From Gaiella sp. (GTDB lineage: Bacteria; Actinomycetota; Thermoleophilia; Gaiellales; Gaiellaceae): a stretch of DNA of 64,000 bases. The DNA lies in the NCBI GenBank assembly GCA_027493885.1, contig JAOSJZ010000001.1:1790622-1854621 (forward strand), in the 5' to 3' direction. The number at the start of each line of letters is the position of its first letter. Positions within the stretch are counted from its first letter, which is position 1. Under the pieces are notes generated by a model. It saw only the letters and a program-made list of their open reading frames with translations. It made no database searches and had not been told where the DNA came from. Below, one piece after another: positions 25,279 to 36,018 of this stretch. The position numbers and the translations under genes are program-made.

Positions 25279-26775
25279 GTGCGTAGCGAGCCGGTTCACC
25301 GGGAGGTCGTCGACGACGACGCTCTCTCGCGGACCGTGGTGCGACTGCGCGAGGCCGGGATCGCGCTGCCGACGTTCGCCCAGCTCGCGAGCCCGTCGCT
25401 GATCCCCCCGCGTGTCCTAGCGGCTCTCGCGGACGTCGGCCTGGACGACCCGCATCCGCTCAACCTCTTCCGGGTGCACTGGTCGAACGGCTCCGACCGC
25501 ACCCGTCTCGTCGACGTCCCCGAGCACCTCGTCCTGCCGAGAGCGCTGACGGGAGTCGAGGCGAGGATCGTCGTCGCGCTCGGCGACCGCTTCCCGCTGA
25601 TCCGGGCCCACAAGGTGCTCGCCGCGTACGGGTGCCTCGCGCCGCGCCTCGCGAGCGGCACCTTCGATCCCACGCGCCACCGCGCCGTCTGGCCCTCGAC
25701 GGGAAACTACTGCCGCGGCGGCGTCGCCATCTCACGGCTGCTCGGCTGCCGCGGGGTCGCGGTCCTGCCCGAAGGTATGAGCCGCGAGCGCTTCGACTGG
25801 CTCGACCGCTGGGTCTCGGACCCGGCCGACGTCGTGACGACGCCGGGGACCGAGAGCAACGTCAAGGAGATCTACGACCGTTGCAGGGAGCTCGCCGCCG
25901 ACCCGGACAACGTGGTCCTCAACCAGTTCTCCGAGCTCGGGAACTACCTCGTCCACTACCTGGCGACCGGGACCGCCCTCGAGCGCGTGTTCGAGTCGCT
26001 GCGCGAGCGCGAGCCGAAGCTCCGGCTGCGGGCGTTCGTGTCGGCCACGGGCTCGGCGGGGACGATCGCCGCAGGCGACCGCCTGAAGGAGCGCTACGGC
26101 TCGCTGACCGTCGCCTGCGAGGCGCTCGAGTGCCCGACGCTCCTCTACAACGGCTTCGGCGAGCACAACATCCAGGGGATCGGCGACAAGCACGTTCCCC
26201 TGATCCACAACGTGCTCGCGACGGACGTCGTCCTCGCCGTCTCCGACCGGGCGACCGACCGGCTCGGCGTCCTCTTCGGCACCGAGGCCGGCCGGCGCCA
26301 TCTCGCGCGGCGCGGCGTGTCCGACGGGGCGCTCGCCGGCCTTCCGTCGCTCGGTCTCTCGAGCATCTGCAACGTGCTCGGCGCGATCAAGGTCGCGAAG
26401 CACTTCGGGCTCGGCTCCGACGACGTCCTGGTCACCGTCGCGACCGACGGTGCGCCGATGTACGACAGCGAGCGCGAGACGGCGCGCGCCCGGTACTTCC
26501 CGGACGGCTTCGACCGCGTCGCGGCGGCCGAGACGTACGGCGAGCACCTGCTCGGCGCCGCGACCGACCACCTTCGCGAGCTCGACTCGAATGAGCGCCG
26601 GCGGATCTTCAACCTCGGCTACTACACCTGGGTCGAGCAGCAGGACGTCTCGCTCGCGGATTTCGAGGCGCGCCGCGACCCGGCGTTCTGGAAGGCGCTC
26701 CCCGACCGCGTGGCGGCGTGGGACGACCTCATCGACGACCTCAACGCCCGGACCGGCGTCCTGGAGGCCCTATGA
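25279..26775 (+). CDS. Fold-type II PLP-dependent enzyme (cysteine synthase/Trp synthase beta superfamily)
   Basis: AHKVLAAY Schiff-base Lys, WPSTGNY, ATGSAGT phosphate loop, [12 protein letters not shown]. Confidence 0.8.
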
Positions 26776-28166
26776 GCACGATCGGAAGCCGCCTCGTCTG
26801 TTCGGGCTGCGGCGCCTCGCCCGGGCCGTGGGAGCCGTACCCCTTCCGCTGCCCCGAGGCGCGCCCCGGCGACGACGTCGACCACGTCCTGCGCCGCAGG
26901 CTCGACCTCGCGCGCGTCTCCTTCCCCCTCGACGACCCCGAGCCGAACCCGTTCCTCCGCTACCGCGGGCTGCTCCACGCCGCGCGACTCGCACTCGCGG
27001 GGGGTATCGCCGACGACCGGCTCCGCGCGCTCGTGCGCCGCCTCGACGACGCGGTGGCGGCGGTCGACGGGCACGGCTTCCGCACGACGCCGTTCCGGCG
27101 CAGCGAGGAGCTCGGCCGTGCTTGCGGCTTTTCCGGGGCGGGCGGGGTCTGGGTGAAGGACGAGACGGGCAACGTCTCCGGCTCGCACAAGGCGCGGCAC
27201 CTGTTCGGTGTCCTGCTCCAGCTCGCGGTGGCAGAGGAGCTCGGCCTCGTAGAACGCGCGCCGAGGCCCGAGCTCGCGATCGCGAGCTGCGGCAACGCGG
27301 CGCTCGCAGCGGCCATCCTCGCCGCGGCGAGCGGGCGCACGCTGCGCGTCTTCGTCCCGCCCCACGCCGAGCCGGCCGTGCTCGCGCGGCTGCGTGAGCT
27401 CGGCGCCCTGGTGGAGGAGTGCCCGCGCGACGGCCGTCCCGGCGATCCGGCCTACCACCGCCTGCTCGAGGCGCTCGCCGCCGGCGCGCTTCCGTTCACC
27501 TGCCAGGGGAACCTCAACGGCCTCGCCGTCGAAGGAGGCCAGACGCTCGGGTGGGAGCTCGCCGCCGCCGGTGTCCCACTCGACCGGCTCGTCGTCCAGG
27601 TCGGAGGCGGCGCGCTCGCGAGCGCGTGCGCCCACGCCTTCGACGAGGCGGTCGCCCTCGGCGCGCTCGCGAGCGCGCCGCGGCTGGACACGGTGCAGAC
27701 GGAGGGGGCCCGGCCGCTCCGGCGCGCGTTCGAGGCGCTCGAGCGGGTCGACGCCGACGACCCCGTCGCGTTCGCGGCGCGGCACCGCTCCCGCTTCATG
27801 TGGCCGTGGGAGACGGAGCCGCGAGGCGTCGCGCACGGGATCCTCGACGACGAGACGTACGACTGGCTCGCGGTGGTCGAGGCGATGCGCGCGACGGGCG
27901 GGCGGCCGCTCGTGGTGGACGACGAGTCGCTCATGGCGGCGAACGCGCTCGCGCGGGAGGCGACCGGGATCGACGTCGACCCCACGGGCTCCGCGGGGCT
28001 CGCCGGCCTGCTCGCGCTCCGCGCGGCCGGGGACCTCGACCCGGAAGAGCGGGTCGCGGTGTTGTTCACGGGAGTCGTGCGAACGGCTCCGACCGAGAGG
28101 AGGAGACACGATGAGGAGCTTCCTCGGACGAGACATCCTGTCGCTTCGGGACTTCGAGCGCGCTGA
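26772..28166 (+). CDS. Threonine-synthase-like fold-type II PLP enzyme with N-terminal Cys motif
   Basis: [51 protein letters not shown]; 3' end overlaps next gene. Confidence 0.8.
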
Positions 28167-34033: not shown

Positions 34034-35065
34034 ATGCACCGCCTAGCCATCGACCGCGCCACGCTTGCGGGGCGCGACTACATCGAGACGCTCGACTGGA
34101 CGGTCGAGGAGATCGAAGAGGCGCTCGCCGTCTCCGGCGAGCTCAAGGCCGCCTTCAGAAACGGCGAGCCGCACCGGCTGCTGCCGGACAAGACGCTCTT
34201 CATGCTCTTCCTCGACAAGTCGACCCGGACGCGGAACGCCTTCGAGTCGGGCATGACCCAGCTCGGCGGGCACGCGATCTACCTCGACGCCGAGAAGACC
34301 CAGGTCGCCCACGGCGAGAGCCCGAAGGACATGGGCGTGATCCTCTCCCGCTACGGCCACGGCCTCGCGATCCGGCACGACCTCGCGCCCTACGAGGGCA
34401 ACGCGTGGATGCGCGAGATCGCCCGCTTCGCCGACATCCCGCTGATCAACCTGCAGTGCGACGTCGACCACCCGACGCAGACGCTCGCCGACCTGATGAC
34501 GCTGCGCGAGCAGCGCGGCGAGAACCTGCGCGGGATGAGGGTCGCCGTGTCGTGGGCGTACGCCCCCTCGTACGCCAAGCCGCTCTCCGTGCCGCAGGGG
34601 CTCGCAACGTTGCTGCCGCGGTTCGGGATCGACGTCGTCCTCGCGTACCCGCACGGCTTCGAGCTGATGCCCGAGGTGATGGAACGGGCGCAGGCCGCCG
34701 CGGCCGAGGCCGGGTCGACGCTCACCACGGTCCACGACATGGACGAGGCCTTCCGCGGCGCCGACGTCGTCTACCCGAAGTCCTGGGGCAGGATCGACGC
34801 CTTCCGTGACGAGCAGAAGGCGCTCGCCGAGTCCGCGGCGTTCCGCGACTGGATCTGCGACGCCCGCCGCATGACGCTCGCGGCGCCGGACGCGCTCTAC
34901 ATGCACTGCCTGCCGGCAGACCGCGGCACCGAGGTCACGGACGAGGTCATCGACGGGCCGCAGTCGGTCGTCTACGACGAGGCCGAGAACCGCATGCACA
35001 CCGCCAAGGCGCTCATGGCGCTGACGATGGGCGGGTACCCGCTGCGAGAGGAGGCGCCCGCGTGA
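34034..35065 (+). CDS. YgeW-like (knotted) carbamoyltransferase
   Basis: DKSTRTR, NLQCDVDHPTQ, WAYAPSYAKPLSVPQG, VYPKSWG, MHCLPADRG. Confidence 0.82.
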   Translation: MHRLAIDRATLAGRDYIETLDWTVEEIEEALAVSGELKAAFRNGEPHRLLPDKTLFMLFLDKSTRTRNAFESGMTQLGGHAIYLDAEKTQVAHGESPKDMGVILSRYGHGLAIRHDLAPYEGNAWMREIARFADIPLINLQCDVDHPTQTLADLMTLREQRGENLRGMRVAVSWAYAPSYAKPLSVPQGLATLLPRFGIDVVLAYPHGFELMPEVMERAQAAAAEAGSTLTTVHDMDEAFRGADVVYPKSWGRIDAFRDEQKALAESAAFRDWICDARRMTLAAPDALYMHCLPADRGTEVTDEVIDGPQSVVYDEAENRMHTAKALMALTMGGYPLREEAPA

Positions 35066-36018
35066 AGCGGCGCACCGCGGTGGTCGCGATCGGCGGCAAC
35101 TCGCTGATCAAGGACCGAGAGCACCAGACGGTGCGCGACCAGTACGTCGCGGCCGGGGAGACGTGCTGGCACATCGCCGCGATGATCCGGGACGGCTGGA
35201 ACGTCGTGATCGGCCACGGGAACGGGCCGCAGGTCGGCTTCATCCTGCGTCGCTCCGAGCTCGCGGCGCACGAGTTGCACGAGGTGCCGCTCGACGTCTG
35301 CGGAGCGGACAGCCAGGGGGCGATCGGCTACGCGCTCGCCCAGAACCTCGAGAACGACTTCCGTCGCCTCGGGCTCGACCGCCACGCCGTGGCGGTCGTG
35401 ACGCAGGTCGAGGTGGCGGCTGACGACCCCGCCTTCACCCATCCCTCGAAGCCGATCGGCTCGTTCATGGACGAGGCGGAGGCGCTGCGTCGTCGCGAGC
35501 GGAACGGCTGGTCTGTCGTGGAGGACGCGTGCCGCGGCTGGCGGAGGGTCGTGCCCTCGCCGGCACCGCTCCGAATCGTGGAGGAGGACGCCGTCCGCTC
35601 GCTCGTCGACGCCGGCTTCGTCGTGATCGCGACGGGTGGCGGCGGCATCCCGGTGGTCGCGGACGCCGACGGCAACCTCGCCGGGGTCGCGGCGGTGATC
35701 GACAAGGATCTCGCCTGCTCGCTCCTCGCGACCCGTCTCGACGCCGAGCTGCTCCTGATCACGACCGCGGTCGAGCACGTCTTCCTCGACTACGGCACGC
35801 CGCGCCAGCGCCCGATCGAGCGGATGACGCTGCCCGAGGCGAGGCGGTACCTCGCCGAGGGCGGCCACTTCGCCCCCGGCAGCATGGCGCCGAAGATCGA
35901 GGCGGTGATCGGGTTCCTCGAGCGGGGCGGTGGGCGGGCGATCGTCACCGACCCGGACAACGTCGAGCGGGCGCTGGCCGGCGAGACCGGCACGCTCGTG
36001 GTCCCCGGACAGCCGTGA
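35062..36018 (+). CDS. arcC: Carbamate kinase
   Basis: VVAIGGNSL, HGNGPQVG, SQGAIGY, KPIG, GWRRVVPSP, GGGGIPV, AVIDKD, GSMAPK. Confidence 0.95.
   Translation: MKRRTAVVAIGGNSLIKDREHQTVRDQYVAAGETCWHIAAMIRDGWNVVIGHGNGPQVGFILRRSELAAHELHEVPLDVCGADSQGAIGYALAQNLENDFRRLGLDRHAVAVVTQVEVAADDPAFTHPSKPIGSFMDEAEALRRRERNGWSVVEDACRGWRRVVPSPAPLRIVEEDAVRSLVDAGFVVIATGGGGIPVVADADGNLAGVAAVIDKDLACSLLATRLDAELLLITTAVEHVFLDYGTPRQRPIERMTLPEARRYLAEGGHFAPGSMAPKIEAVIGFLERGGGRAIVTDPDNVERALAGETGTLVVPGQP

Follow-up and report, generated by a model that had tools for sequence, protein, structure and literature searches.

The stretch of DNA analysed here, a 64,000-nt window of the Gaiella sp. genome (assembly GCA_027493885.1, contig JAOSJZ010000001.1, positions 1,790,622 to 1,854,621), contains at positions 25279-36018 nine genes on the plus strand, which probably encode a Gaiellales/Chloroflexota version of the reductive urate (2,8-dioxopurine, or 'yanthine') pathway (Table 1). 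The G+C content of the window is about 72%, and genes were called from third-position G+C (GC3) frame plots and from start codons with Shine-Dalgarno sequences. GC3 plots and inspection of starts and ribosome-binding sites reveal tight coupling throughout the operon: adjacent genes overlap by 4 to 56 nt or are separated by no more than 26 nt, and the start of PLP2, the second of two genes for pyridoxal phosphate (PLP) enzymes, overlaps the stop of PLP1 (ATGA). For CT2, one of two carbamoyltransferase (CT) genes, a GTG at 34004 is a possible alternative start. Pfam and NCBIfam profiles agree with the family of each gene, which bears out the original prediction of nine tightly coupled genes of these families. 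The operon is flanked by a divergent bestrophin-like gene on one side and by a convergent dinB on the other; no regulator gene is adjacent, and neither a scan for promoters and terminators nor an Rfam scan of the whole window for riboswitches was informative.

Table 1. The nine genes of the operon, in window coordinates, with their principal profile and sequence matches (NCBIfam cut-offs in brackets).
Gene	Product	Position	Strand	Length (aa)	Match
PLP1	CysK/CBS-like fold-type II PLP enzyme	25279-26775	+	498	PF00291
PLP2	ThrC/serine-racemase/threonine-deaminase-like fold-type II PLP enzyme	26772-28166	+	464	PF00291, 149 bits
CT1	ATCase-like carbamoyltransferase	28111-29067	+	318	TIGR00670, 251 bits (237)
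Fe-S	[2Fe-2S] subunit of split FAD-less Mo hydroxylase (DOPDH-type)	29082-29564	+		Fer2, Fer2_2; TIGR03311 positions 2-150, 165 bits
Mo	Molybdopterin subunit of split hydroxylase	29561-31672	+		TIGR03311 positions 162-845, 769.7 bits
SsnA	SsnA-type amidohydrolase	31669-33015	+		NF005540, 434.5 bits (444); E. coli SsnA, 41% identity across full length (446 residues; tblastn)
LLM	F420-type (Mer-like) luciferase-like oxidoreductase	32988-34007	+	339	PF00296, 219 bits
CT2	YgeW-like carbamoyltransferase, short form	34034-35065	+	343	E. coli YgeW, 38% identity (tblastn)
Carbamate kinase	Carbamate kinase	35062-36018	+		NF009007, 378.6 bits (266); E. coli YqeA, 44% identity

The reductive urate pathway, which needs no oxygen, was elucidated only in 2025 and only in gut bacteria (Liu et al., 2025, bioRxiv 10.1101/2025.04.24.650524; Li et al., 2025, PMC12507026). 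It leads from urate to 2,8-dioxopurine and, through reduction of the ring, two ring openings and two ureido cleavages, to a C3 amino acid and finally pyruvate (Li et al., 2025). The Gaiella operon resembles the E. coli cluster (xdhD-ygfM, ygfK, ssnA, hyuA, ygeW, yqeA, ygeY, ygeX; Li et al., 2025) in its SsnA, YgeW-type transferase and carbamate kinase, in the presence of a molybdenum hydroxylase and in its overall logic. It differs in that the hydroxylase is of the TIGR03311 (clostridial DOPDH) type, is encoded by two genes and lacks the YgfM FAD subunit; YgfK gives way to an F420-type LLM, YgeY to an ATCase-like transferase, and YgeX to a pair of CysK-like and ThrC-like enzymes, while hyuA, part of the E. 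coli cluster, lies outside the cluster here. With the Clostridium sporogenes and C. difficile pathway (XdhAC, YgfK/UacX, SsnA, HyuA, YgeW/UacY, YgeY, YgeX; Liu et al., 2025) it shares the FAD-less Fe-S plus Mo hydroxylase of about 850 residues, the gain of ATP through a carbamoyltransferase and carbamate kinase, and an interchangeable reductase (YgfK versus UacX). The clostridial hosts are gut anaerobes, whereas the operon described here belongs to a soil/aquifer actinobacterium, and its lower branch would be fully phosphorolytic. That the operon is a variant of the anaerobic urate/2,8-dioxopurine cluster, as originally proposed, is supported by the homology of SsnA, CT2, carbamate kinase and the Fe-S/Mo pair, as well as by the conservation of the cluster as a whole.

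The first step would be carried out by the split hydroxylase. TIGR03311, named 'selenium-dependent xanthine dehydrogenase', describes a fusion of Fe-S and Mo parts without an FAD domain, and the two Gaiella subunits cover consecutive parts of it with a summed score of 935 bits, above the cut-off of 830. DOPDH of C. sporogenes has the same composition, being an Fe-S plus Mo protein of about 850 aa without an FAD domain (Liu et al., 2025). Given this shared family membership, we propose that the pair acts as a urate/2,8-dioxopurine oxidoreductase converting urate to 2,8-dioxopurine.

Reduction of the ring would fall to LLM. Its 16 best NCBIfam matches are all F420 families, each below its cut-off and led by a Mer-like family at 157 bits, and in a search of PDB sequences it matches only Mer, Fgd1 and fHMAD (F420 hydroxymycolate dehydrogenase). 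The genome carries cofD, a gene of F420 biosynthesis, with a score above its own cut-off. A TIM-barrel fold, similarity to F420 users and a supply of the cofactor are thus all consistent with a place for LLM in the F420-dependent luciferase-like group (Mer/Fgd/Adf).

Related loci tell more about what LLM might do. A search with SsnA against one genome per species returned 80 loci, mostly from metagenome-assembled genomes (MAGs) of Gaiellaceae/Thermoleophilia, with others from soil MAGs of Chloroflexia, Dormibacterales and Limnocylindria. LLM lies directly 3' of SsnA in 62 of the 80, in Gaiellales and many others. Loci of Chloroflexia have in this slot a PydA-like protein with a DHO_dh domain and two [4Fe-4S] clusters, the UacX type of C. 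difficile, and two loci (L035 and L066) have a full YgfK there. Three unrelated reductases thus use one slot after SsnA, and we regard this as the strongest evidence for LLM as a 2,8-dioxopurine reductase. On the strength of gene position and non-orthologous displacement, LLM is quite likely an F420H2:2,8-dioxopurine reductase in YgfK's place, dearomatising the ring with F420H2 as YgfK or UacX would. SsnA, by homology, would then hydrolyse the first ring of the reduced dioxopurine.

The lower part of the operon departs furthest from known clusters, beginning with its two carbamoyltransferases. CT1 clears the cut-off of the ATCase profile, its best PDB match is Pyrococcus ATCase (1ml4), and its carbamoyl-phosphate site is intact (STRTR, HPTQ and, for H-x-LPR, HSLPR). 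Where ATCases bind aspartate through RxQxER (Arg229/Gln231), CT1 carries YMEPVVQxDY, and its 80s (Lys84) loop reads TRAGDFYQES; all of these motifs are invariant in 58 CT1 orthologues. Since both the aspartate site and the 80s loop are changed, CT1 is not to be classed as an ATCase. The genome's own PyrB (C1:548390-549259) retains LRMQAERM and DKGES and is only 29% identical to CT1. We rejected CT1 as the housekeeping ATCase because this separate PyrB, with RxQxER intact, adjoins dihydroorotase at C1:547-549 kb. The best PDB match of CT2 is 3q98, the structure of E. coli YgeW, and the two proteins have the segment WAY(A/S)PSY(A/G)KPLSVPQG in common; against the YgeW models of NCBIfam CT2 scores 243-255 bits, below their cut-offs.

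Carbamate kinase forms ATP from carbamoyl phosphate and ADP, so two carbamoyltransferases could double its supply. Across the loci, ureido-cleaving enzymes occur in pairs: CT1 and CT2 in most, YgeW and YgeY in one (L074), and two CN-hydrolases of the carbamoylase family in two (L116 and L121). This pairing fits a pathway in which two ureido groups have to be removed. Family membership and displacement incline us to the view that CT2 and CT1 phosphorolyse one ureido group each, in which case two carbamoyl phosphates would be released and carbamate kinase would gain two ATP per urate rather than one. The arginine and agmatine deiminase pathways, with their catabolic OTCase or PTCase and carbamate kinase, likewise couple ureido phosphorolysis by a transferase of the ATC/OTC fold to substrate-level ATP formation. 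In contrast to these, two transferases would here serve one kinase on one C3 skeleton, and CT1 stems from the ATCase branch rather than the OTCase branch.

The genes that set this operon apart are conserved with it. Gene content was counted in the 49 loci with full 10-kb flanks: the Fe-S and Mo subunits and CT2 are present in 48 of these, CT1 and PLP2 in 46, PLP1 in 45 and LLM in 38, while HyuA and YgfK occur in two each, YgeY in one and YgeX in none. PLP1, PLP2, CT1 and CT2 are found together in 45 of the 49, so the comparative check suggested with the original prediction finds its extra genes to be conserved parts of the cluster. Furthermore, non-homologous genes replace one another in the same slots, which lends support to the roles assigned here. 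Among 151 genomes sampled from the class, SsnA and CT1 are found in exactly the same three, and four congeners lack both; the operon is an accessory trait.

Absences from the operon were followed through the genome (3.29 Mb in 5 contigs) by tblastn with the E. coli pathway proteins. YgeY has no match anywhere in the genome, YgeX only a partial match of 52 bits, and YgfK no full-length copy and only a GltD-like partial match; the earlier claim that these three are missing therefore holds genome-wide. For HyuA, said to be absent as well, this is true of the operon only, as a homologue with 38% identity lies outside the window at C1:1592900-1594309, 223 kb from the operon. It closes an operon for an NMT1-type (hydantoin/ABC-transporter) uptake system, with an M20-type carbamoylase-like gene divergent upstream. 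Whether this core HyuA-like hydantoinase supplies the second ring opening in trans, acting on a hydantoin or dihydrouracil ring to give 2,3-diureidopropionate, we consider evenly balanced on present sequence evidence, and this would be a weakly supported step of the pathway. A TRZ/ATZ-type deaminase downstream of the operon (41378-42742) was considered as the missing hydantoinase and rejected on account of its family.

The final step, and the least certain, would belong to PLP1 and PLP2. PLP1 consists of a CysK/CBS-like core with helical extensions at both termini. Its Schiff-base lysine, K112, stands in an H111-K112 context which, like the carboxylate-binding loop S140-T141-G142-N143-Y144, is invariant in 28 orthologues. 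The nearest PDB sequences are CysK, which is also the best NCBIfam match (72 bits versus a cut-off of 351), and an AlphaFold2 model (mean predicted local distance difference test, pLDDT, 88.5) has CysK, CBS, beta-cyanoalanine synthase and Fn1055 as Foldseek neighbours. PLP2 begins with a Cys-rich ribbon (C10-x2-C13...C27...H38) and carries its lysine, K140, in an S-H-K context. All threonine synthase and dehydratase models of NCBIfam score it far below their cut-offs (ThrC, 93 bits versus 303), and the top Foldseek matches of its model (pLDDT 88.2) are threonine synthases, serine racemase and threonine deaminase. Both proteins are highly conserved, and what they have in common with CysK or ThrC is limited to the fold and the PLP lysine. 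Neither model comes nearer to diaminopropionate ammonia-lyase than to these generic neighbours, from which no function can be read. No paralogue of either protein was found in the genome. Among the loci compared the two genes are nearly always adjacent and translationally coupled, and at least 8000 clusters at 90% identity match PLP1 (E <= 1e-10).

In the reductive urate pathway the pair would stand in YgeX's place and form pyruvate and ammonia, perhaps with serine as an intermediate, from 2,3-diaminopropionate or a different beta-substituted alanine; the chances of this being right seem to us about equal either way. A CysK-type enzyme capable of beta-elimination or beta-replacement together with an enzyme of dehydratase or racemase type could provide the chemistry. 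The original prediction had the two PLP enzymes replace YgeX. Of this, the absence of YgeX and the conservation of the pair within the cluster stand, whereas the replacement of function is inferred only: elsewhere the pair is found where purine genes are lacking, and in one locus it has a YgeX-like neighbour.

Locus L084, from a different genome of this class, carries at 7758-10534 a PLP1 homologue (46% identity) beside dinB and without PLP2. As dinB also flanks the operon in the window, this neighbourhood could be either the remnant of a lost cluster or a coincidence.

Several observations weigh against a reductive urate pathway with these assignments. None of LLM, SsnA and CT2 reaches the curated cut-off of its nearest named NCBIfam family, and identity between the Mo subunit and E. 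coli XdhD stands at only 27% (tblastn). No hydantoinase gene is part of the operon, and although 39 of 40 cluster-bearing genomes have a homologue, so do 19 of 20 cluster-negative relatives; we dropped this phylogenetic profile as evidence of a specific link, since it is uninformative and reflects a family-wide core gene. YqeB and YqeC accompany the pathway in all gut strains that have it (Liu et al., 2025) and are missing or doubtful here: a genome-wide search for markers of the selenium cofactor returned no match to YqeC and only a weak, XdhC-like match to YqeB. The remaining points concern the PLP pair. In G116 it occurs without purine genes, and the next gene encodes an amino-acid permease; at least nine genomes from a different actinobacterial family have it among housekeeping genes (clpP, comM, dprA, xerC, rpsB); and in L126 it adjoins a YgeX-like gene and hence need not be a simple YgeX substitute. 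Because it is found outside purine clusters, the pair resembles an independent module whose substrate would be a free amino acid, and the CysK carboxylate loop retained in PLP1 argues for a free alpha-amino acid as the substrate.

These points bear on an alternative in which the upper pathway is unchanged and PLP1 and PLP2 replace both HyuA and YgeX, so that 2,3-diureidopropionate is never formed. For example, one transferase could take the exocyclic ureido group of 5-ureido-dihydrouracil or ureidomethyl-hydantoin, PLP-dependent beta-elimination could open the ring, and the second transferase could harvest the rest. PLP1 and PLP2 may have a role that also makes HyuA needless: every variant with the pair, be it with CT1 and CT2, with YgeW and YgeY or with two CN-hydrolases, does without HyuA and usually without YgeX in the cluster, as if two enzymes had been swapped for two, and its coexistence with the YgeX-like gene of L126 suggests a role other than that of a diaminopropionate ammonia-lyase. 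CysK-family enzymes, moreover, form and break bonds between C-beta and the nitrogen of ureide-like nucleophiles. However, the invariant STGNY loop of PLP1 speaks for a free alpha-amino acid and not for a cyclic imide; HyuA does adjoin PLP1 in three loci (L034, L038, L111) and is a member of the cluster in two more (L041, L070); nearly every cluster-bearing genome (the 39 of 40 mentioned above) holds a hydantoinase in trans; and the pair is also found alone with an amino-acid permease. To our knowledge, opening of a hydantoin or dihydropyrimidine ring by a PLP enzyme has no precedent, and overall we consider this alternative unlikely.

Slightly less likely still is that the operon degrades a different N-heterocycle, such as another oxopurine, a pterin or a ureido-substituted pyrimidine, with shifted specificities of the Mo hydroxylase, LLM and SsnA and a lower module acting on a different ureido-amino acid. 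The modest scores would fit this explanation, as LLM, SsnA, CT2 and the Mo subunit are either below curated cut-offs or only 27-41% identical to characterised enzymes, and no relative of CT1 or of the PLP pair has been characterised. An OHCU decarboxylase is encoded in the genome too, and an oxidative urate route may run in parallel. Yet the full set of enzyme classes and their order fit the published urate route, the summed score of the Fe-S and Mo subunits exceeds the TIGR03311 cut-off, and the clusters of relatives contain genes that would funnel purines to urate. A canonical FAD/Fe-S/Mo xanthine dehydrogenase (XDH) lies between LLM and CT2 in about 40 loci (e.g., L002 12336-19626), adenine deaminase follows carbamate kinase in 14, and many loci add genes for adenine or adenosine deaminase, guanine-deaminase-like enzymes and PnrA-type nucleoside ABC transporters. 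In L002, the closest relative (73-90% identity), both XDH and adenine deaminase lie within the cluster, and the dinB flank is the same; the genome studied here has lost these two genes from the cluster position.

An anabolic use, in which carbamoyl phosphate would enter an albizziin- or diaminopropionate-like non-proteinogenic amino acid of the ureido or diamino type through beta-replacement PLP enzymes and the two transferases, could draw on the reversibility of carbamoyltransferase reactions and on the fact that consecutive CysK- and ThrC-like enzymes are typical of the biosynthesis of beta-substituted alanines, but it is highly improbable, as NRPS, ligase and exporter genes occur in none of the 80 loci, carbamate kinase, SsnA and the Mo hydroxylase would have no role, and the context of purine salvage and catabolism is consistent across two phyla.

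Parts of the reductive urate pathway proposed here have been anticipated. Li et al. (2025, PMC12507026) state in one sentence, drawn from a neighbourhood network, that SsnA clusters of Chloroflexota contain a putative F420 enzyme of the luciferase family instead of YgfK/UacX, and the idea of an F420 reductase is thus already in print. Those clusters resemble ours in having LLM beside SsnA, and MAGs of Chloroflexia, Dormibacterales and Limnocylindria carry the PLP1-PLP2-CT1-CT2 module. The LLM variant was assigned to Chloroflexota in that study, whereas in our comparison it is dominant in Gaiellales/Thermoleophilia, and many Chloroflexia have a PydA-like reductase or YgfK. In addition, Li et al. 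(2025) took every PF00185 protein for YgeW and every PF00291 protein for YgeX, and for this reason CT1 and the PLP module were not told apart. The literature we searched contains no description of a second carbamoyltransferase with a fully phosphorolytic ureido harvest or of the PLP pair and, beyond the two 2025 papers and a commentary, nothing on an enzyme of the PLP1/PLP2 type acting on albizziin or diaminopropionate. The route had been called undescribed at the outset: this no longer applies to the F420-for-YgfK exchange, and within the literature searched it still applies to the second transferase and the PLP pair.

Other features of the window and the genome deserve mention. Upstream of the operon, the bestrophin-like open reading frame (ORF) (23536-25065, minus strand, 509 aa) has coding signal only at about 24200-25065, and a DUF4337-like ORF in another frame (23610-24266) fills the remainder; the 509-aa ORF probably represents either two genes or a single gene with a frameshift. 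A histone-deacetylase-like gene at 22767-23599 is apparently frameshifted, either as a pseudogene or through an assembly error: ORF 22767-23459 matches PF00850 positions 1-248, and the last part of ORF 21917-23599 supplies positions 245-296 in a different frame. Downstream, a separate plus-strand operon (37414-44483) encodes an SsuA/NMT1-like binding protein fused to RTX repeats, an ABC ATPase, two permeases, a TRZ/ATZ-type (guanine/8-oxoguanine deaminase-like) amidohydrolase, a short-chain dehydrogenase/reductase and a 324-aa protein without family. It could be a unit for uptake and deamination of nucleobases or heterocycles that feeds the neighbouring pathway.

Outside the window, tblastn with XdhA and XdhD detected about nine separate Mo-hydroxylase loci of the xanthine dehydrogenase family, a large number for a genome of 3.3 Mb, and the best XDH match (49-64% identity) lies at C1:1780256-1783706, about 7 kb before the start of the window. 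The OHCU decarboxylase gene adjoins a guanine-deaminase-like gene at C1:2138006-2140131. No uricase of the PF01014 family was found in the genome, and the organism may also have a partial oxidative urate route with a non-classical urate oxidase. SelD is present above its cut-off but split across frames: the match at C1:2314639-2315550 covers model positions 2-52 and 92-309 in one frame and 51-96 in another, which points to paired frameshifts, misassembly or an artefact of the alignment.

Taken one step further, the reductive urate pathway of soil Actinomycetota and Chloroflexota might possess a distinct and fully phosphorolytic lower branch. This would comprise an F420H2-dependent purine-ring reductase, an ATCase-derived transferase raising the yield to two ATP per urate, and an obligate PLP pair (a CysK-like and a Zn-ribbon ThrC-like enzyme) with chemistry unlike that of diaminopropionate ammonia-lyase, perhaps without any dedicated hydantoinase, the same pair being widespread outside purine clusters as well. 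We offer this fuller picture tentatively and consider it less likely than not.

A re-tooled reductive urate pathway would be a conserved accessory trait of abundant soil lineages, namely Gaiellales, Thermoleophilia and Chloroflexota. If the assignments hold, LLM would be the first F420-dependent purine reductase and CT1 would add a new substrate specificity to the ATCase fold, while the substrate-level ATP yield from ureido groups would be doubled. A very common, unannotated pair of PLP enzymes would likewise gain its first functional handle. The natural swaps seen among these loci, with three reductases and three kinds of ureido-cleaving pairs, can guide both reconstitution of the pathway and the engineering of urate-degrading strains.

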